The notes beneath the pieces are model-generated. The model did no database searches. It saw only the letters and a list, made by a program, of their open reading frames with translations, and had not been told where the DNA came from. Shown in pieces: positions 1 to 14,354 of a stretch of DNA of 64,000 nt. The translations under genes were made by a program, and so were the position numbers. The stretch lies in the sequence record PP400784; one strand, 5' to 3'. The DNA is from Escherichia phage FL38. How positions within the stretch are numbered: position 1 is the first letter of the stretch; each line of letters starts with the position of its first letter.

Positions 1-561
1 CTGGTGTATGCTGTTAAGGTTCCAGAAAACAGATTGAATTATGAAATGGACCGTAACCACAATGCGCCAAACATTCGAATTACCGGACGTGATTTTGATC
101 CGCTTGTGTTGAGCTTTAGAATGGACTCTAGCGCATCAAACTATAGAGCAATGCAGGATTGGGTTAACTCAGTAGAAGACCCCGTTACAGGGCTTCGTGC
201 GCTTCCTGTTGACGTTGAAGCAGATATTCAGGTCAACTTACATAACCGAATGGGAGTCCCTCACACGATCATGATGTTTAATGGTTGTGTTCCTGTTGGT
301 GTGAGTGCACCGGAATTAACCTATGAAAACAACAACGAAATTACAACATTCGATGTTACTTTTGCGTATAGGACTATGCAAACTGGTGCTGTAGGAGAGC
401 AAGCCGCGCGAGAATGGATTGAGGATAAGGCAATAAACGCAATAACAAACACTTTCGGCAATAATTTACTTGATAGTGGGTTATCTGCTGCTGGTAATGC
501 TTTATCTCGTCTAAATGGCGTTGGTGGGCGTGTGGTGAATACTGTCACTAACTGGTTCTGA
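1..561 (+). CDS. 54: Late structural protein, probably baseplate/tail-tube gp54-like, C-terminal part; gene starts upstream of window
   Basis: Open frame runs from window edge to stop at 559-561; position upstream of alt matches T4 order 48-54-alt. No direct motif recognised. Confidence 0.45.
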   Translation: MVYAVKVPENRLNYEMDRNHNAPNIRITGRDFDPLVLSFRMDSSASNYRAMQDWVNSVEDPVTGLRALPVDVEADIQVNLHNRMGVPHTIMMFNGCVPVGVSAPELTYENNNEITTFDVTFAYRTMQTGAVGEQAAREWIEDKAINAITNTFGNNLLDSGLSAAGNALSRLNGVGGRVVNTVTNWF

Positions 562-1977: not shown

Positions 1978-4029
1978 TTACATTTTAAATTTATCTGGCA
2001 TTGCGTCTACAGATACCAGATCAGCGATAAGCTGACGTAGAGTTGCCTTATCTGCTTTCTTACGTTCGGTTTTAGCTTCGCTAATGAAGCTGGAGAAAGA
2101 CAGGTCAGAAGCAGGTTTAACAACACCTTCACGGATGAATGCATCACCGTCCGCGATCATCTCGCCAGATTCTTGCAATGCTGCCAGTTCATTTTTGTTC
2201 ATAATATGTGCCTCAATGTAATAAGTTTCTTGTGAATCCGTCGATGCCGTAGCACGAGTTACCGTATCAAAGGATAACACAACACCGCGAGGAAGTAAAA
2301 TCTCGCATTCTTTGTAAGCAAATGCTTTGTTACCTACTGGCAAGACAGGGATGTTTTCCGCGCCAGCAATGGAGAAAGCAACATTAGCGCCACCTTCACC
2401 GCGAGAGCCAGCCATAGAATCAACACCAGCAACGGCACTAGCCACGTTTGCATTCCAGCCGCCAAAAATGTTAGGTGCAAGGGAAGTGCTCACATAGTTT
2501 TTAAAGTAAAACGCTTTTTGCTTACGTGCAGTTTCCCACATTTGCGACCGGAAGTCCATACCACGATACAGAATAGTACCCGGATCAAGTTTAACGCCAT
2601 AGTTGGAGAAGGCATTATCCAGTGCATCGCACATCTTGACCAATTCTTCTGGATCTGAGATGCCTTCAAACTCTTCCAGCTTACGGTCGGTTAGGAAGTT
2701 GTTCATATTGATGTATGCTGCATCGGCATATTCGCTCAACACAAAACCTTCCGCGCCTGGCAGATCAAGATCAATATCTGCCATCATTTCACCCATGTTG
2801 CTAGCAATTGCTTCAAACATACCGGAAGCAACATTACGTAGGGCATCGGTTTTGATCTGGGTGATATGACTACGCAGCATTTCAGCTTTTACATCTGCTG
2901 GCATAGACTGGTCTACTCGATCCATTGCCAGGGCGGTGATCTTGTTTTCGAATACTTCCTCGCTCATGATTTCTTTTAAGCGTTTGATTGATGCTGCGAT
3001 AACTTCCGCAGACAACGGATCATATTGATCCTGAACTTTTACCAGTTCGCTTACTGCGTATTTTGCATCGGCTTCGCTTTCAAAAATAGTACGCATGAAA
3101 CCATAGCGAGTGATAATATCACTTGTCCATTCATTCAGAGAACGGGCGGTTGAACGTTCTAAGGCTTGACGATCAATCAGAGTATTAAACTGTTTCTTAG
3201 GTTCGGCTTCGGTGATATCTTCTTCCGGTTTAAGATTAATTTTTTCTGGATGATTCACATAGTCGCTGTTATAGGTCGCTTGAGTTTTCAGCATTTCTTC
3301 TTTAGTCAAACGAGATTTAGCCGCTACGCGTTGTTCTGCTTCCGCGTTTCGTTCTTCTTCTGACACAAGACTGGCCGCATATGCCTCATCTTTAGTCAGA
3401 GATTCACCAGTAGCCTTAGATACCCAGCGATCACCTAAATCACTTTCTACTTTAGTGAACAAGGATTCATCAAGTTTAATCCCTTTAATCTTATCAATCG
3501 CCATCCCGCGACGCTTGACAACAACTAAAGCGATCTTTTTGCTGGTCATTACTTCCTGCTGGAATACTTCAAACTTCGGTGTACGACGCACCAAACGCTC
3601 TATAACGCGCTTAACCAGTTCGGTCTTACCTTTCATGCGGGATACGTTAAAACGGAACATAACAGCGTCTAATTGCGCTTTACGGGCTGTTTCCATAACC
3701 ACATCAAAAGCACTTGACATAACTGCAATCGGGTTATCGCCTAGACCATTTTTAAGCTGTACAATACGACCGCTTTTGTTCATTTCGCACAGTACAACAT
3801 GTGCGGTCTTGTCACCCATACGAATGATTTTAGGTGTTTTGTTGGTGAAGTTACAAAGACGGACAATCACATCTTTATCGCGTGTCTGTACTGCAAAAAG
3901 CTGTTTAGGATTCTGCTTAGGCTTTAAGCACTGTACCGGAGCAATACTGCCAAAGTTTTCTTCCTCTTCCGTCAACAGCCATTTCTCGAAAGATTCAATC
4001 ATTAGATCGTCGATTTCTAAGTTAAACAT
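1978..4029 (-). CDS. alt: Alt, packaged ADP-ribosyltransferase acting on host RNA polymerase
   Basis: 683 aa (T4 Alt 682 aa); ART motifs YRGMDF / YVSTSL / ECEILLPRG; position between gp54 and DNA ligase region. Confidence 0.85.
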   Translation of the reverse strand: MFNLEIDDLMIESFEKWLLTEEEENFGSIAPVQCLKPKQNPKQLFAVQTRDKDVIVRLCNFTNKTPKIIRMGDKTAHVVLCEMNKSGRIVQLKNGLGDNPIAVMSSAFDVVMETARKAQLDAVMFRFNVSRMKGKTELVKRVIERLVRRTPKFEVFQQEVMTSKKIALVVVKRRGMAIDKIKGIKLDESLFTKVESDLGDRWVSKATGESLTKDEAYAASLVSEEERNAEAEQRVAAKSRLTKEEMLKTQATYNSDYVNHPEKINLKPEEDITEAEPKKQFNTLIDRQALERSTARSLNEWTSDIITRYGFMRTIFESEADAKYAVSELVKVQDQYDPLSAEVIAASIKRLKEIMSEEVFENKITALAMDRVDQSMPADVKAEMLRSHITQIKTDALRNVASGMFEAIASNMGEMMADIDLDLPGAEGFVLSEYADAAYINMNNFLTDRKLEEFEGISDPEELVKMCDALDNAFSNYGVKLDPGTILYRGMDFRSQMWETARKQKAFYFKNYVSTSLAPNIFGGWNANVASAVAGVDSMAGSRGEGGANVAFSIAGAENIPVLPVGNKAFAYKECEILLPRGVVLSFDTVTRATASTDSQETYYIEAHIMNKNELAALQESGEMIADGDAFIREGVVKPASDLSFSSFISEAKTERKKADKATLRQLIADLVSVDAMPDKFKM

Positions 4030-4633: not shown

Positions 4634-5149
4634 TTATTTTTTTAATTGCTCATCTTGCAATAGGGCAATCACATGCTGGCGATGTTCTTCCGATTGAGGA
4701 ACACCGAAAAAGTTTGTTTTGTAGAAATACTCTAATCGGTCTTCTCGTGTGCTCTCTTCCATCATGATCGCGGGTAGTCCGAGATTTCGGAAACGTCGCT
4801 TTTCTGCTGGCGTAAAATCACTGTAATACAACATAGAATCATCATTACCAGCAATGCTAAACTCATCTTTCATGAAGGAGAATATTGCGTTTAAACGCTG
4901 TTTACCGTCCACGATTTCGATCTCATAGCGAGAGCCATCATCAATCTTAGCCATTGCGATAGCACCAACAGGAAAATCATTAATCATGTTTTCGATAAAC
5001 ATACGTTTGTTTTCGGTGTCCCATACCAAAGGACGCTGATAATCTGGGTTCATGTTGATAAAGCCATCTTCTAACCACGCCTCATAAACAGAGATGACAA
5101 AGTTTTTAGTATTGGTATAGTAACGGCGTTTAGGCGTTAAACGGTTCAT
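4634..5149 (-). CDS. DUF262 / ParB-like nuclease-domain protein (171 aa)
   Basis: Motifs DYQRPLVWD and IVDGKQRLNAI typical of DUF262 (GmrSD N-terminal, ParB/Srx fold); start trimmed to ATG with SD AGGAGA abutting upstream stop. Confidence 0.55.
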   Translation of the reverse strand: MNRLTPKRRYYTNTKNFVISVYEAWLEDGFINMNPDYQRPLVWDTENKRMFIENMINDFPVGAIAMAKIDDGSRYEIEIVDGKQRLNAIFSFMKDEFSIAGNDDSMLYYSDFTPAEKRRFRNLGLPAIMMEESTREDRLEYFYKTNFFGVPQSEEHRQHVIALLQDEQLKK

Positions 5150-5150
5150 G

Positions 5151-5480
5151 TTATAGTCTCCTGAATGGATCATCACGTAAATCAATATCTTTTAAGAACT
5201 CATCCCATGAATGGCGGATATTGTTCTCAATTCTCCAGATAAGCGCAGGGATTGAACGTTCTCCCATCTGGAAGTAAGGATCATATGATCCATATGCCCA
5301 ATATGCTACGACAATTCCACAATCAGCGCAATAATATTCTATTTCACTTGCTGGCGACCAAAGTCCATCAATATGATCAGTGATCTTGCTTTCGATGTTA
5401 TGGCTATGGCAATCAGGGCAACGGATGCAATGACCTTGTTTATCGTAATTTGACGTTAGAGAATACTTAAACAATCTCAT
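5151..5480 (-). CDS. Zinc-ribbon protein (109 aa)
   Basis: Cys clusters C-IRC-PDC and YCADCG; TAATG stop/start overlap with upstream gene. Confidence 0.5.
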   Translation of the reverse strand: MRLFKYSLTSNYDKQGHCIRCPDCHSHNIESKITDHIDGLWSPASEIEYYCADCGIVVAYWAYGSYDPYFQMGERSIPALIWRIENNIRHSWDEFLKDIDLRDDPFRRL

Positions 5481-6196: not shown

Positions 6197-6438
6197 ATAC
6201 GACCCTTTAACCCAGTACAGATTTTAGTCGGTTCTTTACCGTGCCACATTAAGTAAAGTCCGTTAATGCGACCTTGTTTTGTGTGTGATTCTTTTCTGAT
6301 CTTCTTATAGTGTCGTGCTTCCTCAACCGATTGTTTAGAATACCAATCATAAAGGAATAGGCACAAAGGCCAACCATTAGCGGCCTTAATGCAGTTATTA
6401 AGAAATTCCTTATTGCGTTTAATTAATTTTCTTTTCAC
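6193..6438 (-). CDS. Hypothetical protein (81 aa), apparent GTG start
   Basis: ORF overlaps neighbours by 4 nt at both ends (GTGA / ATGA), suggesting translational coupling. Confidence 0.4.
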   Translation of the reverse strand: MKRKLIKRNKEFLNNCIKAANGWPLCLFLYDWYSKQSVEEARHYKKIRKESHTKQGRINGLYLMWHGKEPTKICTGLKGRI

Positions 6439-6686
6439 GCTGCCCCCATTGGTTTGATAGTAACAGAATCTAAAAGACCTTTGTTAGCCAGTTCGCGGCA
6501 AGTTTTCAGATCCGCAACTTCCCAGCCAGCCGCAATCAGGTTATCAATGAGGCTGTTAGCAACTTCTTCGCTCATGAAAGAGCACTGTTTGCCTATGGTG
6601 TAGCGTACACGCTGTAATTTCAGTTTACGGAAGCCTTTAACGTTCAGGTCTTTAGCGATTTTCTTTGCGGTTTCGATGTTAGCCAT
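6435..6686 (-). CDS. Hypothetical protein (83 aa), first gene of coupled cassette
   Basis: ATG with SD AGGAGAATCA directly downstream of promoter cassette. Confidence 0.6.
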   Translation of the reverse strand: MANIETAKKIAKDLNVKGFRKLKLQRVRYTIGKQCSFMSEEVANSLIDNLIAAGWEVADLKTCRELANKGLLDSVTIKPMGAA

Positions 6687-6726
6687 TGTTTGATTCTCCT
6701 AAGTGGTATCTCGTCTTGATGGTTGT

Positions 6727-6756
6727 ATTGTAGGGGATCTCCCGATCCCCTGTCAA
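6727..6756 (-). promoter_or_regulatory. Early promoter cassette
   Basis: TTGACA-18 bp (GGGGATCGGGAGATCCCC)-TACAAT on minus strand. Confidence 0.65.
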
Positions 6757-6770
6757 CACTTTTTATAAAA

Positions 6771-6938
6771 TTATTTGTTAATTTCTGGTGCGTTGCTAGG
6801 ATAGTAACCTTCTTTAACACCCAGGTATTTCGCAACCATCCCTACAATCTTCTGTGCTACTACAATGTCAAATTTCAGATAATCTTCGCCGTGGGTTTCA
6901 ATGATATATGCTTCACATGCTGCTTTAGTCTCGAACAT
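6771..6938 (-). CDS. Small protein (55 aa), copy A of duplicated gene
   Basis: MFETKAACEAYIIETHGEDYLKFDIVVAQKIVGMVAKYLGVKEGYYPSNAPEINK; near-identical second copy at 10581..10748. Confidence 0.65.
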   Translation of the reverse strand: MFETKAACEAYIIETHGEDYLKFDIVVAQKIVGMVAKYLGVKEGYYPSNAPEINK

Positions 6939-6971
6939 TTTGATTCTCCTATTTCGTTTCGTTATGTGTGT

Positions 6972-7013: not shown

Positions 7014-7487
7014 TTAGTTGCACCAAATTCGAATGATTTCGTCTCGTTCAAATTTTTGCCAGATTACTCGGTCGCCCGCTGCCATAATACTGACAAATCC
7101 AGTTATATTTCCGGTGTACTTGCTTTTAGTTTCTGCATCATATTCAAAGAATGGAGCTTTAAGATCGCTAAACTCATCTTTTCCCACAAACTTCATAACA
7201 TGACGGTGTGCGTAATATTCGCTTCTTAGTGTTGTTGTGATAGTTCCGTCATCATTTGATTTCAGATGCAATTCGGCATCTTCATAAAGACTTGCATCTC
7301 GTTGTTTACTTTCGATACCATCATTATATGTTGATTTGGTTGCACTCCAACATTGATATGTCTTATCTACATTTTCGATCTTTTCCTGTGTCATGTCAAA
7401 AAGCGGCGCAACCTTTTTCTTAGCCGCGTGCGCAACGTTGGTCATAGACAGTGCCGCAACAACCACAATCGCAATAATTTTCTTCAT
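7014..7487 (-). CDS. Predicted secreted/periplasmic protein (157 aa)
   Basis: N-terminal signal peptide MKKIIAIVVVAALSMTNVAHA with AHA-A cleavage site. Confidence 0.6.
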   Translation of the reverse strand: MKKIIAIVVVAALSMTNVAHAAKKKVAPLFDMTQEKIENVDKTYQCWSATKSTYNDGIESKQRDASLYEDAELHLKSNDDGTITTTLRSEYYAHRHVMKFVGKDEFSDLKAPFFEYDAETKSKYTGNITGFVSIMAAGDRVIWQKFERDEIIRIWCN

Positions 7488-8261: not shown

Positions 8262-8292
8262 AATAAAAAAAGCCGACGCTAAGGTCGGCTAA
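8262..8292 (-). terminator. Rho-independent terminator
   Basis: GCCGAC-gctaag-GTCGGC hairpin followed by U7 on minus strand, downstream of 8298..8606. Confidence 0.7.
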
Positions 8293-8297
8293 TAAAA

Positions 8298-8606
8298 TCA
8301 TTTAGACAAATAATCATTCAGTGCAATCCGGTCGGCGTATGCTGGTGTTACGTCAATCACAATCACTTTAACGCGTGCTTTCTTGCGACCTGGGTTTTCA
8401 CGTAACCAGTGCTCATGACCGTGAACATTTTTATACTGCGATGCTTCTTCGAAGGTACGGATCGGACCTGGGTAATCAGCGTAAAGGATCTCTAGATCTT
8501 CGGTGATGTAAAAATATACATCATAATTACTGTTCTCTAGTTTAAGCAGAGACTTTCGGAACATTGGGAGATTTTCGCGGGTAAATTCAAAGATATTATC
8601 TTTCAT
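8298..8606 (-). CDS. H-x-H-W family small protein, member 1 (102 aa)
   Basis: Shares Y-I-x-D ... H-x-H-W ... V-x-V-x-V pattern (VHGHEHW) with five paralogs nearby. Confidence 0.55.
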   Translation of the reverse strand: MKDNIFEFTRENLPMFRKSLLKLENSNYDVYFYITEDLEILYADYPGPIRTFEEASQYKNVHGHEHWLRENPGRKKARVKVIVIDVTPAYADRIALNDYLSK

Positions 8607-8656
8607 AGTATTATCCTCAATAGTTGGATGAAAAGGGGCGTTAACGCCCCCATATA

Positions 8657-8944
8657 TTAAAACAGTCCTTCCTGTACACCGTAGTAGAGTTCGTCGCTGA
8701 TAATTTCATTAATGCGACGGTGTGCATATTCCTGATTTGCGAAGTTGTCAGCAAGTTCTACTTTAGTTTCGCCGTCATGTGTCCATTTAGTGATAACTTT
8801 ACCATCTGCAAATTTGAAGTTGAACTCTTTAGCTACTGCATCGCGTACCAGACGTGCAAACTTATTGTTGCGGATTGCATTGTCGGTTTCGTGTGCAGCG
8901 TGAGCAAATTTGTTAACTTTCAGAGTGATAGTGATGTATGCCAT
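8657..8944 (-). CDS. Hypothetical protein (95 aa), paralog of 11984..12295
   Basis: Shared segment R..VR.A.AKEFN.K with 11984..12295 product. Confidence 0.55.
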   Translation of the reverse strand: MAYITITLKVNKFAHAAHETDNAIRNNKFARLVRDAVAKEFNFKFADGKVITKWTHDGETKVELADNFANQEYAHRRINEIISDELYYGVQEGLF

Positions 8945-8990
8945 AATTTGATTCTCCTAGTTAGAAAGTGTATCTCGTTTCGATGGGGAT

Positions 8991-9019
8991 ATTATGCTAT
9001 ATCCCCGATCCGGTGTCAA
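8991..9019 (-). promoter_or_regulatory. Early promoter cassette
   Basis: TTGACA-17 bp-CATAAT on minus strand. Confidence 0.7.
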
Positions 9020-9025
9020 CACTTT

Positions 9026-9304
9026 TTATAAAATAATTTTTTGATATTTTTCTATGATGTTCGTGTAAGTCACCTCAACCGCTAGCACCGTTGCTTCGAA
9101 TCCACCGTTTAGCCAATGGCTATGATCATGATCGTGAAAGAAACCAAGACCAGTACGAAGACCTTCTTTATATTCGGCGCGTACATTTAGATCATCATCG
9201 ATAAACAGATAAAACCATGAATTTTTACTAGGATTGATGATACAACCTTTCAGATTAGGGAGAATATCACGACTAAGAATAAACTTATCACCTACTTTGA
9301 ACAT
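9026..9304 (-). CDS. H-x-H-W family small protein, member 2 (92 aa)
   Basis: FHDHDHSHW motif; start trimmed to ATG (MFKVGDKF) preceded by SD GTGAGGA. Confidence 0.55.
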   Translation of the reverse strand: MFKVGDKFILSRDILPNLKGCIINPSKNSWFYLFIDDDLNVRAEYKEGLRTGLGFFHDHDHSHWLNGGFEATVLAVEVTYTNIIEKYQKIIL

Positions 9305-9308
9305 AATA

Positions 9309-9629
9309 TTAGTCCTCACTTATAAGGTCAAACCAATTGTTTTTCGCATAATGCTTAATGCGTGCTTGATCTGCTTCCGCTGGTGATAGATTCCATGCAA
9401 CCACTACAACTTCTGACGCATCGTCATCCGTTTCTGATACCCAGTGATTGTGATTCATACAGTTATTTGCTATCGAGTGAGCAAATGATTTCATCACTGG
9501 AGACGTATAATCATAGTAACGGATTTTCAGATTTTCATCAACATACAAATAGATCGTATAAGGTTTATATTCAGTAACCAGTAACAGACAGTTACGCAAT
9601 TCTGGGAAAATCTTTTTAGTTAATTTCAT
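9309..9629 (-). CDS. H-x-H-W family small protein, member 3 (106 aa)
   Basis: MNHNHW motif and family pattern. Confidence 0.55.
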   Translation of the reverse strand: MKLTKKIFPELRNCLLLVTEYKPYTIYLYVDENLKIRYYDYTSPVMKSFAHSIANNCMNHNHWVSETDDDASEVVVVAWNLSPAEADQARIKHYAKNNWFDLISED

Positions 9630-9843
9630 ATTCTAGTTCTCCGTAATACACGGTAATCCATTTTTCTTCATATTTTGTATCTTTCCAGCACACAATACCG
9701 TTTACTGTGCAATCTTTGGAATTGACGAATGATTCATATTGTTCCGCATCTTCCATCATTTCATGAGCGGTCTTTTCATCGAATATATCGCAGATCGCTT
9801 TATATGCTCGATAATCTTTAAATTTGCTCATAATTAACACCAC
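9616..9843 (-). CDS. Hypothetical protein (75 aa), tandem paralog of 9834..10043
   Basis: Both begin MSKFKDY(R/K)AY and share W(K/E)(D/E)T.Y motif. Confidence 0.5.
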   Translation of the reverse strand: MVLIMSKFKDYRAYKAICDIFDEKTAHEMMEDAEQYESFVNSKDCTVNGIVCWKDTKYEEKWITVYYGELEYEIN

Positions 9844-10043
9844 TCAAGAGTTTTTGAAAACACATCTATCCATTGTTGAGTATATGCGGTTTCTTTCCAT
9901 GATACAATACCAGTCGAATAATGGTTTTTGTTTCCAGAAAAGGACGGGCATTTTGATGCATCTTCCATCATCTTTTCGGCGAACTCTGGTGCGTATACTC
10001 GCAAAATCTGTTGATATGCTTTATAATCTTTAAACTTACTCAT
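9834..10043 (-). CDS. Hypothetical protein (69 aa), tandem paralog of 9616..9843
   Basis: N-terminal MSKFKDYKAY shared with neighbour. Confidence 0.5.
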   Translation of the reverse strand: MSKFKDYKAYQQILRVYAPEFAEKMMEDASKCPSFSGNKNHYSTGIVSWKETAYTQQWIDVFSKTLEWC

Positions 10044-10324
10044 AACAACACCACCGATACATCGTAATCATTCGCGGCCTTATCGGCTTCTTCAACCGAC
10101 ATAATACCTTCTGCGACAATTGGCATAGGGTGATCGTGATTCCACCAATGGTCATGTATATCAATTTCAGTTTTGCCGGAAAATGAATCATGTTTGACGT
10201 TTTTCACTTTATACCCGATGTGACCGTCGTGGTCAATAAAGATATAGTTTCCGAAAATCGGTGTCTGTAAAATCATACCGAAAAATTTTTCTTTGTTGTT
10301 CGGGTCGAGTGTAATCATTTTCAT
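10040..10324 (-). CDS. H-x-H-W family small protein, member 4 (94 aa)
   Basis: IFIDHDG ... IHDHWWNHDH motif. Confidence 0.55.
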   Translation of the reverse strand: MKMITLDPNNKEKFFGMILQTPIFGNYIFIDHDGHIGYKVKNVKHDSFSGKTEIDIHDHWWNHDHPMPIVAEGIMSVEEADKAANDYDVSVVLL

Positions 10325-10336
10325 AATATATTCCTC

Positions 10337-10516
10337 TTAGAAAGGGATGGTCATTTCTTGAGCTTGTACATTCTCATTAGGATTAAACTTAATCCAACCG
10401 ATATTGTCTACCAGCATATGCACATTTTTATCATATCCTACGTGAGTAGTCAACACTAAATGTGCTTTACCTTCAACGATGATTTCCATGTACTTCTGAA
10501 CTTCGATAGCTTTCAT
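10337..10516 (-). CDS. Hypothetical small protein (59 aa), not in ORF track
   Basis: ATG with SD GGAGAATCA directly downstream of promoter cassette; MKAIEVQKYMEIIVEGKAHLVL... Confidence 0.45.
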   Translation of the reverse strand: MKAIEVQKYMEIIVEGKAHLVLTTHVGYDKNVHMLVDNIGWIKFNPNENVQAQEMTIPF

Positions 10517-10548
10517 TTTGATTCTCCGTTTGTTGTCTTGATGGGAGT

Positions 10549-10577
10549 ATCTTACTACTCCCTTTAATCATTGTCAA
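10549..10577 (-). promoter_or_regulatory. Early promoter cassette
   Basis: TTGACA-17 bp-TAAGAT within GGGAGTAGTAAGATACTCCC inverted repeat. Confidence 0.6.
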
Positions 10578-10580
10578 CTA

Positions 10581-10748
10581 TTATTTGTTAATTTCCGGTG
10601 CGTTGCTTGGATAGTAACCTTCTTTAACACCCAGATATTTTGCAACCATTCCGGTGATCTTCTGTGCTACTACGATATCGAATTTCAGGTAGTCTTCACC
10701 GTGGTTTGCTACAATGTATGCTTCGCATTCTGCTTTAGTCTGGAACAT
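10581..10748 (-). CDS. Small protein (55 aa), copy B of duplicated gene
   Basis: MFQTKAECEAYIVANHGEDYLKFDIVVAQKITGMVAKYLGVKEGYYPSNAPEINK; ORF-track start 10814 is an extension through the promoter. Confidence 0.65.
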   Translation of the reverse strand: MFQTKAECEAYIVANHGEDYLKFDIVVAQKITGMVAKYLGVKEGYYPSNAPEINK

Positions 10749-10782
10749 TTTTGATTCTCCTATATCTCGTTGGTATGTGTGT

Positions 10783-10811
10783 AGTATAGGGGATCTCCCG
10801 ATCCCCGTCAA
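10783..10811 (-). promoter_or_regulatory. Early promoter cassette
   Basis: TTGACG-17 bp-TATACT; near-copy of cassette at 6972..7000. Confidence 0.6.
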
Positions 10812-10819
10812 CAACTTTT

Positions 10820-11128
10820 TTATTCTTCATCTTCATTTTTATCTTTATATGCGTACTTCATAAATTTGTCTGCTACTTTGTCCGCGTTTTCAGGTTCTAC
10901 GTCTGACGCTAGGACAACAGCTAGTTCGGTTTTGTCGTTTCCATCATACCAATGATTATGAGTGTCGTTTTCTTCGATATAAAACGAATCATTTGGAGTT
11001 GTGCGACAATATACGTCTAAATTCCCATCGATATAAAAGATCCAATCCGAATACAAAATGATTGCTTTAGCCAGATTTTTATTGTCTCTTACAAAAGGTT
11101 CCGCGACAAATAGCTTAGTTTGTTCCAT
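10820..11128 (-). CDS. H-x-H-W family small protein, member 5 (about 102 aa)
   Basis: WIFYIDGNLDVY ... THNHW motif; start trimmed to MEQTKLF with SD GAGGAAA. Confidence 0.5.
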   Translation of the reverse strand: MEQTKLFVAEPFVRDNKNLAKAIILYSDWIFYIDGNLDVYCRTTPNDSFYIEENDTHNHWYDGNDKTELAVVLASDVEPENADKVADKFMKYAYKDKNEDEE

Positions 11129-11144
11129 AATATTTTCCTCAAAA

Positions 11145-11336
11145 TTATACAGCTTCGTAAACTTCCCAATGTCCAACACCAGCACGCTTAACGAAAAGGT
11201 TTTCTTTGATGTTATTCATAAACGTCTGGATAGATTTAATGCGGTTTGAAGGTTTCCATTCTTCGTTGGCATTGCGTCGATACATCATAACATTACCAGT
11301 TCGCTTATATTCAGCAACCATTTTAAGACCACACAT
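11145..11336 (-). CDS. Hypothetical protein (63 aa)
   Basis: ORF with SD GAGGA upstream of ATG. Confidence 0.45.
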   Translation of the reverse strand: MCGLKMVAEYKRTGNVMMYRRNANEEWKPSNRIKSIQTFMNNIKENLFVKRAGVGHWEVYEAV

Positions 11337-11393
11337 AATATTATCCTCAATTTGTGGGAGAGTATTACCCCTCCCAATGATTGTTATGTTATA

Positions 11394-11714
11394 TCACACA
11401 AAATGGCGTGTCAATGCTTCTTTTGCGGTTCCGCTAAGACTTTCGATCTCGCCTGGCATAACATCAACCGCCAGAACTTCTACAACATCCTCGGACCCTA
11501 ACCAGTGAGTATGGCCTTTGTAGAACTTGATAACCAGACTACCTTCCTCATCCCATTTAACGCTATCGCTAGCCCACCACACATCACCGTCGATAAAGTT
11601 GATGTAAAGCACACTACGCCACATTGAATTAATTACTTTCAATACTGCGCCTTTCATCTCTTCCACGGTATGGTCTTCCATTTTGAAGACCTCACCTACC
11701 TGAACTTTTGCCAT
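11394..11714 (-). CDS. H-x-H-W family small protein, member 6 (106 aa)
   Basis: LYINFIDGDVWW ... KGHTHW ... VVEVLAVDV pattern. Confidence 0.55.
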   Translation of the reverse strand: MAKVQVGEVFKMEDHTVEEMKGAVLKVINSMWRSVLYINFIDGDVWWASDSVKWDEEGSLVIKFYKGHTHWLGSEDVVEVLAVDVMPGEIESLSGTAKEALTRHFV

Positions 11715-11911: not shown

Positions 11912-11945
11912 AATTGATTCTCCTAGTTCGTTTCGGTATGTGTGT

Positions 11946-11975
11946 ATTATAGGGGAGTTTAACCTCCCTTGTCAA
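11946..11975 (-). promoter_or_regulatory. Early promoter cassette
   Basis: TTGACA-18 bp-TATAAT on minus strand. Confidence 0.65.
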
Positions 11976-11983
11976 CAACTTTT

Positions 11984-12295
11984 TTAAAGTTTTTCCATGA
12001 TAACGGTCATAATTACATCTTCTGCGCGAGCGGTCAGATTATCAGCGTCAGCATGTGGGCGGTTGGTTGTTACAGAGATAACACCGTTGCGCACTGGTTT
12101 GATATTGATATCAAGATGATCCGCGAAACGTTCGCCAGTTACAGAATGAATTTTGGTGTTAAATTCTTTTGCCAGTGCCTTGCGAACTTCACGAATCAGG
12201 GTAGCGTTTTTCAGTTGGTTCTCCGCGCTCATGGTCTTCTGGGTGTTCATGGTTCCGTCGAAGTCAATCATTGGCAGCGTTACGATGTATTTCAT
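11984..12295 (-). CDS. Hypothetical protein (103 aa), paralog of 8657..8944
   Basis: Shared REVRKALAKEFNTK segment; SD and promoter cassette upstream. Confidence 0.55.
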   Translation of the reverse strand: MKYIVTLPMIDFDGTMNTQKTMSAENQLKNATLIREVRKALAKEFNTKIHSVTGERFADHLDINIKPVRNGVISVTTNRPHADADNLTARAEDVIMTVIMEKL

Positions 12296-12382: not shown

Positions 12383-12859
12383 TTATTTTTCTTGATGCTC
12401 GCGCTCGTACTTTTCGAAATAAAATTCTACTGGCTGGTCATGAATTGACAGCAAGCCAAAGCGTTTAGCCGCTCGCAATCCCATATTGCGCTGAATGTAC
12501 TTCTGGAAGTTCTCGCGTATACACTTACGCCAGTATTCTAAGCCCATACAGCTTTTATAAAGGTTGCATTGCACACACGCCGGATTCATGTTATCAAGTA
12601 TATCATGTTCCGGTTTATGCATTCCTACAACCTTATACTTCCACGATCCATCATCATTACGGGCAATTCGTCCATTTTCATCATAGACTACCTTTGATCG
12701 TCGCAATACTGGTTTGATATGGTCTGCGTGCCAGCGATCCCCTAGTTCCTCGCCACAATAGGCACAACGTCCACCGTATTTCATTTTCAGGATCTGGCGT
12801 TGCTCTTTCTTTGACAATTTTTTAGGTTTAGGGGCTTTCGCCCCTTCATTATCACACAT
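12383..12859 (-). CDS. HNH endonuclease (158 aa)
   Basis: CAYCGEEL ... WHADHIKP ... NPACVQCN: HNH/zinc-finger signature; overlaps ligase stop by 8 nt. Confidence 0.7.
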   Translation of the reverse strand: MCDNEGAKAPKPKKLSKKEQRQILKMKYGGRCAYCGEELGDRWHADHIKPVLRRSKVVYDENGRIARNDDGSWKYKVVGMHKPEHDILDNMNPACVQCNLYKSCMGLEYWRKCIRENFQKYIQRNMGLRAAKRFGLLSIHDQPVEFYFEKYEREHQEK

Positions 12860-14354
12860 CGAATACCTCTTTTACTGTATTTGCAGTGGTCTTGTCGTAG
12901 CGAATACGTTTGATGATTGGGAGAAATAAAGAGAACTCCGGTTCATCTTCTTTACGTGATTTGCTGCGGATATACCCGTTGCATGTCATCTCAATAACTT
13001 TTCCAATCAGGTTATGACGGTCAGCCCATAACATTTCTCGGTCGAGTTCATTTCGACGATCGAACGGAATTACACGTTCAGTACCATCATCACCTTTTTC
13101 GGTTGTAGTGTCGGTTAATCCCGATCCGGTGTTAGTCATCATTCGTCCGCACGCACTACGGACAGTAAAACCGCCTACCTTATTGGGGTCTTTACTATGC
13201 GGATATACATCAACAATTTCCGCGTCGAAGTCAATCACTTCTTTAAATTTAACCTGATCTTTACTACGGCGATCTTCAAATACACCATGTAAATTTTTAA
13301 GGATAATACCTTCTAAGCCCATGTTGACATAACGATGATATACTTCGCGAGCTTCATCGATATTGTTAACTACAGTGTTTTCGATGATCTGAACACGAGG
13401 ATCGTTAAGTTCTTCAACAATCTGTTTTAGTTCTTCGAATCGATCTTTATATTGCTTCGTTGCTTTCTCGTTTCCGTAATACACATCACGGTCGATAACA
13501 TCCCAGACAGTGTAAACAATACATTGGGCTTCTTCTTTTGGAATAGTTCCTTTAAGTGATTTGTTGAGGATACCATTTCCGGTCTGACGATCTGCAACAA
13601 CGGATTCTTTCACTGCTTCCGCTACTGGCGTTAATGGCATTTCCTCTTCTTCAAATATCCATGACAGAGTACCATCATAAACGCTTTCAACGAAGTTCTG
13701 CGCTGGTGTTTGCGAAAGGGTAGGCATATATACCAATTCGCCATCTAGAACAATTCCACGGCCTCGTAGACGCTCTAAAACCGCAAACAAATCATCAAGC
13801 CCTTGATAGGTATTACCTGAGCGGGTATAGATTGCTAATGTTTCCCCGTCAATATCAGCCATACCACGAGCGCCATCGCTTTTAAGTTGTGCATACGCCG
13901 GATACTTGATATTAGCAATAGTCTTATCAGAACATGACGATGCAAGGTGGCACGGCTGCTGGGGGATCAGTTTCTTCCATACCTTGTTTGCAGTGGTAGC
14001 GGAACAACCACATTCCAGGTCACGATTCAGGACCATCATTGCAACTTTAGCATCATCCTCTGACAAGCAAGTCAGAGTATCGGTAACTAGCTGTAATGCT
14101 GCATTACCAGTTACTTGACGAGTGGCAAGTTTATTTTTAAAGACCTGTAATGCACCGGATAAAGACAATACAGACGAATAACGCGATGGTTTATCGTATT
14201 TCTTTACGCCAAACGTAACCTGTTTGCAATATGCCAGATAAAAGCATTCTTTCAGCGTTTCATTGCTCGCGGATTCTTTCAGAATCTTTTCTTTCAGCGA
14301 TGTTTTGTCTGTTGCTGCAAGCTGATTAATGATATTAAGAATTGACATTTTCAC
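12852..14354 (-). CDS. 30: ATP-dependent DNA ligase
   Basis: 500 aa; adenylation motif YAQLKSDGARG (KxDG), EGIILKN, GIANKSLKGTI closely parallel T4 gp30. Confidence 0.92.
   Translation of the reverse strand: MKMSILNIINQLAATDKTSLKEKILKESASNETLKECFYLAYCKQVTFGVKKYDKPSRYSSVLSLSGALQVFKNKLATRQVTGNAALQLVTDTLTCLSEDDAKVAMMVLNRDLECGCSATTANKVWKKLIPQQPCHLASSCSDKTIANIKYPAYAQLKSDGARGMADIDGETLAIYTRSGNTYQGLDDLFAVLERLRGRGIVLDGELVYMPTLSQTPAQNFVESVYDGTLSWIFEEEEMPLTPVAEAVKESVVADRQTGNGILNKSLKGTIPKEEAQCIVYTVWDVIDRDVYYGNEKATKQYKDRFEELKQIVEELNDPRVQIIENTVVNNIDEAREVYHRYVNMGLEGIILKNLHGVFEDRRSKDQVKFKEVIDFDAEIVDVYPHSKDPNKVGGFTVRSACGRMMTNTGSGLTDTTTEKGDDGTERVIPFDRRNELDREMLWADRHNLIGKVIEMTCNGYIRSKSRKEDEPEFSLFLPIIKRIRYDKTTANTVKEVFDV

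Follow-up and report, generated by a model that had tools for sequence, protein, structure and literature searches.

The genomes of T4-type phages contain early "ORFan" genes by the hundred, most of them of unknown role, and the regions that hold them have yielded host-takeover and anti-defence factors. In phage RB49, the interval between the DNA ligase gene and alt forms a hyperplastic region (HPR3) rich in early-promoter/stem-loop (PeSL) elements, with "eight PeSLs in an ~5-kb area" (Arbiol et al. 2010, PMC2839356). For RB49 and phi1, PeSLs have been shown to be early promoters, terminators, and recombination sites (PMC2839356). Small proteins of the anti-defence or immunity type, namely AcrIIA7, Tad2 (DUF2829), and the type VI secretion system immunity protein Tis1, are also among the nearest known counterparts of the proteins described here. 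The stretch of DNA analyzed here (the window) comprises 64,000 nucleotides (nt) of Escherichia phage FL38 (sequence record PP400784). Between ligase and alt it holds six small open reading frames (ORFs), termed members A–F, which an original prediction, made from the sequence alone, had grouped into one paralogous family with an H-x-H-W motif. We find that the family is real, previously undescribed, and narrow, and that it lies in a well-known type of phage region.

The six proteins share 23–31% pairwise identity, and each gene has a GAGG/GGAG-type Shine-Dalgarno sequence 6–9 nt ahead of its ATG (6/6). Homology was assessed within the full set of 630 stop-to-stop ORFs that the window contains. 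The best non-self phmmer match of each member is another member, and links at E ≤ 7e-4 join all six into one connected graph (A–C 2e-12, B–C 7e-5, D–E 1e-4, C–E 2e-4, A–B 3.5e-4, and B–F 7e-4). With leave-one-out profiles, the omitted member was the top non-training match in 6/6 cases (E 1.4e-14 to 4e-4), and the best unrelated ORF of the window appeared only at E > 0.05. The pattern H.HW occurs six times against 0.6 occurrences expected from composition (53,160 residues, six-frame ORFs), once in each family ORF and nowhere else in the window ORFs. The connected links, the leave-one-out recovery, and the H.HW count together confirm by sequence comparison that the six ORFs are true paralogs of one family, which is larger than current classifications recognize. 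The signatures on which the original prediction was built (an aromatic-I/V-D block, H-x-H-W, and a V-x-V-x-V strand) are present as described; the shared motif has statistical support, and the marked local expansion is genuine.

Coordinates of the six family members and of further features of the locus (positions of the window; lengths in amino acids, aa)
Feature	Position	Strand	Remarks
Member A	8298..8606	-	102 aa, RB49 ORF197c type, phrog_9345, HGHEHW
Member B	9026..9304	-	92 aa, RB49 ORF199c type, phrog_17255, HSHW
Member C	9309..9629	-	106 aa, RB49 ORF200c type, phrog_9345, HNHW
Member D	10040..10324	-	94 aa, Phi1/GEC-3S allele of RB49 ORF203c, phrog_15972, HDHW
Member E	10820..11128	-	102 aa, Phi1/GEC-3S allele of RB49 ORF206c, phrog_15965, HNHW
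Member F	11394..11714	-	106 aa, RB49 ORF208c type, phrog_16486, HTHW
S2 and S1, two paralogous genes between D and C	9834-10043, 9616-9831	-	69-71 aa, E 1e-18
PeSL-type early promoter, spacer stem-loop	11912..11983	-	repeat family D1; TTGACA-18-TATAAT, 12/12
PeSL-type early promoter, immediately after E	10749..10820	-	repeat and promoter motif
Promoter-like site	10577-10549	-	
PeSL-type early promoter, overlapping the 3' end of B	8947..9040	-	repeat and promoter motif; GEC-3S annotation agrees
Intrinsic-terminator-like hairpin and T-run, just after A	8271..8290	-	annotated terminator in GEC-3S
Alt ADP-ribosyltransferase (alt)	1978-4029	-	
DNA ligase (gene 30)	12852-14354	-	
HNH protein, after ligase	12383-12859	-	

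Matches of the six proteins to their own PHROGs have E values from 1e-48 to 1e-72. The PHROGs database divides the six among five groups (9345, 17255, 15972, 15965, and 16486), all of "unknown function" and with weak cross-matches; whereas these groups stand separately there, the cross-matches and leave-one-out profiles unite them here in one superfamily. Profile searches revealed no seventh member among the 630 ORFs of the window. A candidate at the left edge (window 1–135) was rejected as noise in a non-coding frame.

The family has no clear match to a well-characterized family, in line with the failure of the original prediction to assign it to a known fold. Pfam, NCBIfam, and PADLOC gave no consistent match among the up to 39 members scanned, and a sequence-profile search of the PDB gave nothing below E 0.35, one top match being a His-tag artefact. 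Weak matches to PROCT, Cupin_2, T4_Y03C, and Imm19 concerned one or two members each and lay below the cut-offs, and the PADLOC defence components produced one stray BrxL match (E 0.012, one of 39 members). A search of BFVD returned family members only. In one database record, a B ortholog bears the label "KOW2-KOW3 of Spt5"; the Pfam scan gave no KOW profile match. No description of the family was found in literature searches.

Apart from fusions, members are 84–114 aa long and mostly acidic, with isoelectric points of 4.4–6.3 in the window. The family sequences show no conserved cysteine and no N-terminal hydrophobic leader, and the members appear to be small cytoplasmic single-domain proteins. 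Conservation was counted across 35 family members, with residues numbered as in B. The only invariant columns are His-63 and Trp-64 (35/35). The H-x-H-W motif, noted as conserved in the original prediction, is thus found in all six window ORFs, but it is not invariant family-wide, as its first histidine (His-61) is kept in 32/35 sequences. Phe-55 is present in 30/35, Asp/Asn-77 in 29/35, and Asp-36 in 27/35. Further polar or aromatic conserved columns are Asp/Asn-38, Asp/Asn/Gly-77, and Ala-83–Asp-84, and the remainder belong mostly to the hydrophobic core.

AlphaFold2 modeled B with a predicted local distance difference test (pLDDT) score of 89.7 and a predicted template modeling (pTM) score of 0.84 (35-sequence alignment), and C with a pLDDT of 80.5 and a pTM of 0.75 (25-sequence alignment). 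The model of B comprises a strand (residues 7–9), a helix (12–18), three strands (21–24, 31–35, and 41–45), and a long loop (46–60), followed by a short helix (62–67) that opens with the His-Trp pair, a strand (70–75), and a C-terminal helix (83–91). The family is confidently predicted to share a compact β-α-β3-loop-α-β-α domain. The loop ahead of His-Trp is the most length-variable region and has the lowest confidence in both models. Given the database results above, the fold could be new; alternatively, it could represent a divergent small α/β or barrel-like domain.

The window is a Krischvirus of the RB49/Phi1/GEC-3S type. In a megablast search, segment 8200–11800 matched 58 phage records, all of them Krischvirus (RB49-like T4-type coliphages), with Phi1 and GEC-3S as the closest records (97.9% identity). 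Proteins A and B gave exact matches to proteins of Escherichia phage FL38. When copy number was compared across these phages with a concatenated query, the family was found in 58/58 Krischvirus records and all six genes stood in one block in at least 43; Cognac and FL04 hold fewer. A word-index profile search of 5.8 billion proteins recovered only orthologs, in 86 clusters that all share at least 69% identity with one of the six. When 1.84 billion representatives were searched exhaustively with an HMMER profile, 21 proteins were found; apart from P0095, all belong to Krischvirus or to uncultured T4-like relatives. P0095, a 1034-aa repeat protein and the sole non-phage match, was dismissed as spurious: its seven stretches reach individual scores of -1.6 to 7 bits, and the same internal-repeat inflation lets it match seven unrelated Pfam families. 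A second profile iteration with a broader profile added nothing further, a tblastn search of the distant members against 50,697 phage genomes had matches in Krischvirus only, and a scan of IMG/VR with the E-type alignment found two Krischvirus-like contigs and no others.

The distant members (P0087–P0102) come from uncultured T4-like phages. A 20-kb contig (L004) carries two E-type members, again in the ligase–alt interval. A 168.9-kb Krischvirus-like genome (L016) carries F, E, D′, two C-type variants, A, and a degenerate 88-aa relative, and a 2.1-kb contig (L002) has in a row genes for an F-like protein, a B-like/E-like fusion, a D-like, and a C-like protein. In a joint alignment, the distant proteins cluster by paralog type, indicating that the six types are older than the split of Krischvirus from these relatives. 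As far as these searches reach, the family is old and restricted to one lineage.

Two side observations concern this distribution. The 88-aa ORF of L016 (5918–6184), located between a 59-aa gene and F, matches the family weakly (E 0.013) and reads GNGHLIN without the His-Trp pair; in that phage it could represent a seventh member that has degenerated or diverged strongly. Krischvirus proteins identical or almost identical to F and the RB49-type D (D′) have been deposited as hypothetical proteins of "Bacillus atrophaeus" and "Escherichia coli" on contigs of ~163–166 kb, most likely through phage contamination of bacterial assemblies.

Alleles were compared among nine Krischvirus loci (the window and eight others). 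Full-length copies of B, C, and F are 97–100% identical across the genus (B 97–99%), except in ELT4, where F is 92% identical, and in L007, where C is 92% identical and B is truncated. A is 89–99% identical among the nine loci; phages kvi and JSE carry a frameshifted copy. The D copies form two allele classes of 55–58% identity (window allele versus RB49-type) with saturated synonymous divergence (dS), and those of E at least three classes of 68–79% identity. The ratio of nonsynonymous to synonymous divergence (dN/dS, Nei-Gojobori, summed over pairs) is 0.31 for A, 0.05 for B, 0.16 for C, 0.09 for D, 0.18 for E, and 0.11 for F; by this measure all six genes are under purifying selection. Between allele classes of D or E, dS ranges from 0.9 to saturation, as against 0.03–0.1 in flanking genes. 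Such high values inside near-identical flanks point to replacement by recombination with a diverged donor rather than to rapid evolution in place, which indicates that D and E differ between phages through cassette replacement. The description of the family as fast-diverging in the original prediction is not supported, given the near-identity of B, C, and F, the low dN/dS of all six genes, and the fact that each paralog type has distant orthologs of its own in uncultured relatives, so that the expansion is old.

Gene loss is seen as well. Cognac keeps F and E only and lacks D, S2, S1, C, B, and A; downstream of E it has a single 55-aa M gene and then a homolog of 6435–6686. FL04 shows the same two-gene coverage. 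In the window, a 172-nt direct repeat (6770–6941 and 10580–10751, 86% identical) flanks the 3.8-kb block that holds D, C, B, and A, and the layout of Cognac is what a crossover between the two copies would leave. The repeat covers a 55-aa gene that is thus present twice (6771–6938 and 10581–10748; the proteins match at E 5e-34), and a PeSL repeat adjoins each copy (6693–6764 and 10749–10820). Cognac, and apparently FL04, have a single repeat copy and have lost the 3.8 kb between the repeats. Given the natural isolates that lack four of the six genes, the frameshifts in A (kvi and JSE), and the truncated B of L007, the genes are accessory, yet they are kept by selection where present.

All genes in this part of the window lie on the minus strand, and the location is a hyperplastic region with flanking sigma-70 promoters and stem-loop repeats. 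A repeat of ~72–94 nt occurs in eight copies between 6693 and 12378, each with TTGACA, a GC-rich hairpin in the spacer, TATAAT, and a Shine-Dalgarno sequence in that order. These repeats match the published PeSLs (PMC2839356), and three of the eight bound the units that hold the six family genes. Judged from the order of these elements, the PeSL at 11912–11983 would drive a 59-aa ORF, F, a 63-aa ORF, and E. The PeSL immediately after E, together with the promoter-like site, would drive M2, a 59-aa ORF, D, S2, S1, C, and B. The PeSL at the end of B would drive K1 (8657–8944) and A, this unit ending at the terminator hairpin. No T4-type late promoter motif (TATAAATA) was found between 6 and 13 kb. 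The family genes, called early in the original prediction, are indeed preceded by sigma-70-type PeSL promoters; since the novel ORFs of RB49 were also judged early (PMC1524935), the six genes are probably expressed early in infection.

Genes D, S2, S1, C, and B are tightly packed with overlaps, the start of C overlapping the end of S1 by 14 nt. In three other loci, an S gene precedes a C-type member, directly so in L003 (95–331) and L016 (7789–7998). A single 260-aa ORF of L014 (318–1100) fuses two S domains with a C-type domain, a hint at joint action of S and C-type proteins. A second fusion is the B-like/E-like gene of L002 (823–1434), which encodes a 203-aa tandem protein (P0087) and was seen once.

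At a probability of roughly 0.42, we favor the interpretation that the family members are non-enzymatic early binding proteins with paralog-specific host, defence, or competitor targets. No enzyme signature is apparent, as the domain and structure databases give no match, His-63 and Trp-64 alone are invariant, and the proteins are acidic and lack a conserved cysteine. The members would act as inhibitors or modulators, as binding modules without catalysis, each paralog recognizing a different target early in infection. The shared platform for binding would consist of the conserved scaffold and its His-Trp anchor, with target specificity conferred by the variable loop next to it. Some members may also act in complexes with each other or with neighboring S proteins, as hinted by the fusions P0087 and L014. 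Several points weigh against this interpretation: both fusions come from short metagenomic contigs and are known from a single instance each; in some members, Asp-36, His-61, His-63, and Asp/Asn-77 could make up a metal or active site; and arms-race inhibitors are less typically conserved across a genus as strongly as B, C, and F. A narrower version, which we consider doubtful, holds that the family is an unrecognized fold of early anti-defence proteins, each paralog neutralizing a different E. coli immune component or signal through the His-Trp platform and the variable loop. If so, the swapping of D and E among Krischviruses would be a visible trace of matching host defence repertoires.

The gene order allows another explanation, which we likewise regard as unlikely: the members could be accessory subunits for early processes of the phage itself (replication, recombination, or transcription start-up), assembled as hetero-oligomers of paralogs and S proteins. 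The tight packing of D through B, the recurrence of S ahead of C-type members together with both fusions, and the high conservation of B, C, and F are all consistent with it. It is opposed by Cognac and FL04, which lack D, S2, S1, C, B, and A and were nevertheless isolated as viable phages, and by T4, which has no counterpart and carries alt.1 alone between gene 30 and alt.

The original prediction read the histidines as invariant and took them to suggest a metal site. Extended to the family, this would mean small metal-binding proteins or metalloenzymes in which the H-x-H motif, Asp-36 (after strand 3), and Asp-77 (after strand 5) chelate Zn, Fe, or Mn, each paralog catalyzing or sensing something metal-dependent. 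The frequencies of His-61, His-63, Asp-36, and Asp/Asn-77 given above favor it, as do a weak Cupin_2 match for member E (E 0.19) and a weak PROCT/MPN match for B-type members (E 0.0034). These two matches fall below gathering scores and concern one or two of 39 members; Cupin_2 reaches 11.9 bits against a cut-off of 27.2, in member E only. The cupin motifs (G-x5-H-x-H-x3,4-E-x6-G and a second His motif) were not recovered, and a cupin double-stranded β-helix does not fit the AlphaFold2 models, which have four to five short strands plus helices. The JAMM/MPN metalloprotease suggested by the PROCT match was also rejected, as its zinc site (E...H-x-H-x7-S-xx-D) and MPN fold were not recovered. 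The ligands also vary: the first histidine is replaced by serine in the commonest E allele, that of RB49 and most Krischviruses (SNHW), and by aspartate in P0091; Asp-36 is threonine in all A-type members; and position 77 is asparagine in the C-type and glycine in the D of the window and in RB49-type E. The lineages with replaced ligands all have dN/dS well below 1. Every putative ligand except His-63 is thus replaced in at least one subfamily under purifying selection, which weakens the metal site; a two-histidine site shared by the family is not supported, and we hold a metal-dependent role to be quite improbable.

The setting also invites the thought that the genes are near-neutral ORFan cargo, copied and shuffled by PeSL-mediated recombination, with a shared motif that reflects common descent only. 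The array is embedded among PeSL repeats, the 3.8-kb block with its 172-nt repeats at the ends is deleted in some phages, and shuffling through PeSL mini-circles has been shown in this region of RB49 (PMC2839356). The dN/dS range of 0.05–0.31, the retention of all six genes in at least 43 of 58 genomes and of each subtype in distant uncultured relatives, and the confidently predicted fold render this very unlikely. Least credible of all is a role as sponges for bacterial immune signaling nucleotides, comparable with Tad1, Tad2, or Acb2 and with one signal per paralog, the tryptophan stacking on the base and the histidine contacting phosphate or ribose: two invariant polar or aromatic residues on an otherwise divergent small scaffold and the early, accessory nature of the genes would suit it, but the similarities are not significant, no member matches DUF2829 or any sponge family in Pfam, which speaks against Tad2 in particular, and the restriction of this family to one lineage contrasts with the wide spread of known sponges across phage groups.

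The six genes belong to an interval of ~8.8 kb between ligase and alt that is packed with small ORFs. In T4, the equivalent interval (gene 30 to alt) holds a single 62-aa ORF, alt.1, and no homolog of the family was found across the syntenic 23 kb of T4. Immediately downstream of alt lies a second ADP-ribosyltransferase gene (1075–1899; ADPrib_exo_Tox, E 4e-16), and the uncultured relatives L004 and L016 carry this gene pair as well. The early hyperplastic region that holds the six genes also encodes a phage protein with a GmrSD_N (DUF262-type) domain (4634–5185; Pfam E 1.2e-19); GmrSD is a host type IV restriction enzyme family. A 157-aa ORF (7014–7487) has PeSLs on both sides and a signal-peptide-like N-terminal segment (MKKIIAIVVVAALSMTNVAHA). 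Among the eight Krischvirus loci compared with the window, none has a counterpart at ≥60% identity; with a lower threshold, one of them shows a diverged homolog (dN 0.37). The ORF occupies the position of RB49 ORFan192, a classic PeSL insertion/deletion cassette. Two K genes (8657–8944, 95 aa; 11984–12295, 103 aa) are weak paralogs of each other (E about 1e-4 in a 20-protein set), and the latter is the counterpart of RB49 ORF210, for which PeSL mini-circles were demonstrated by Arbiol et al. (PMC2839356). A fixed pairing of a K gene with a family member was rejected, as L004 shows another order and adjacency.

Five PHROG groups of unknown function are now joined into a single six-paralog family, and experimenters gain a confident structural model without known relative and the His-Trp pair as a conserved anchor. 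The natural deletion variants (Cognac and FL04) and the natural allele swaps of D and E provide defined experimental targets. Should the members prove to be inhibitors with paralog-specific targets, they would be a compact example of a lytic phage diversifying one scaffold; if they are not inhibitors, they would be an ordinary, lineage-restricted accessory family.

Among T4-type phages, the early duplicates alt/alt.-1/alt.-2 and modA/modB likewise represent early, non-essential genes duplicated locally within this part of the genome (PMC1524935). In contrast to the six-member family, which has no known relative and no homolog in the T4 interval, the alt and mod duplicates are enzymes of known function. 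A close parallel is with the PeSL-flanked ORFan cassettes in HPR3 of RB49 and phi1 (PMC2839356), which share with the window the same region and the same early-promoter/stem-loop elements. The cassette replacement and the repeat-mediated deletion seen here fit the published model of PeSL shuffling (PMC2839356). Unlike those cassettes, most family members lack individual PeSL flanks and reside inside multi-gene early units. The "hypothetical" ORFs 197c–208c of RB49 HPR3 (PMC2839356) include the six family genes; that paper, in which term searches find neither "paralog" nor "gene family," treats them as unrelated ORFans, whereas in our analysis the six constitute one family.

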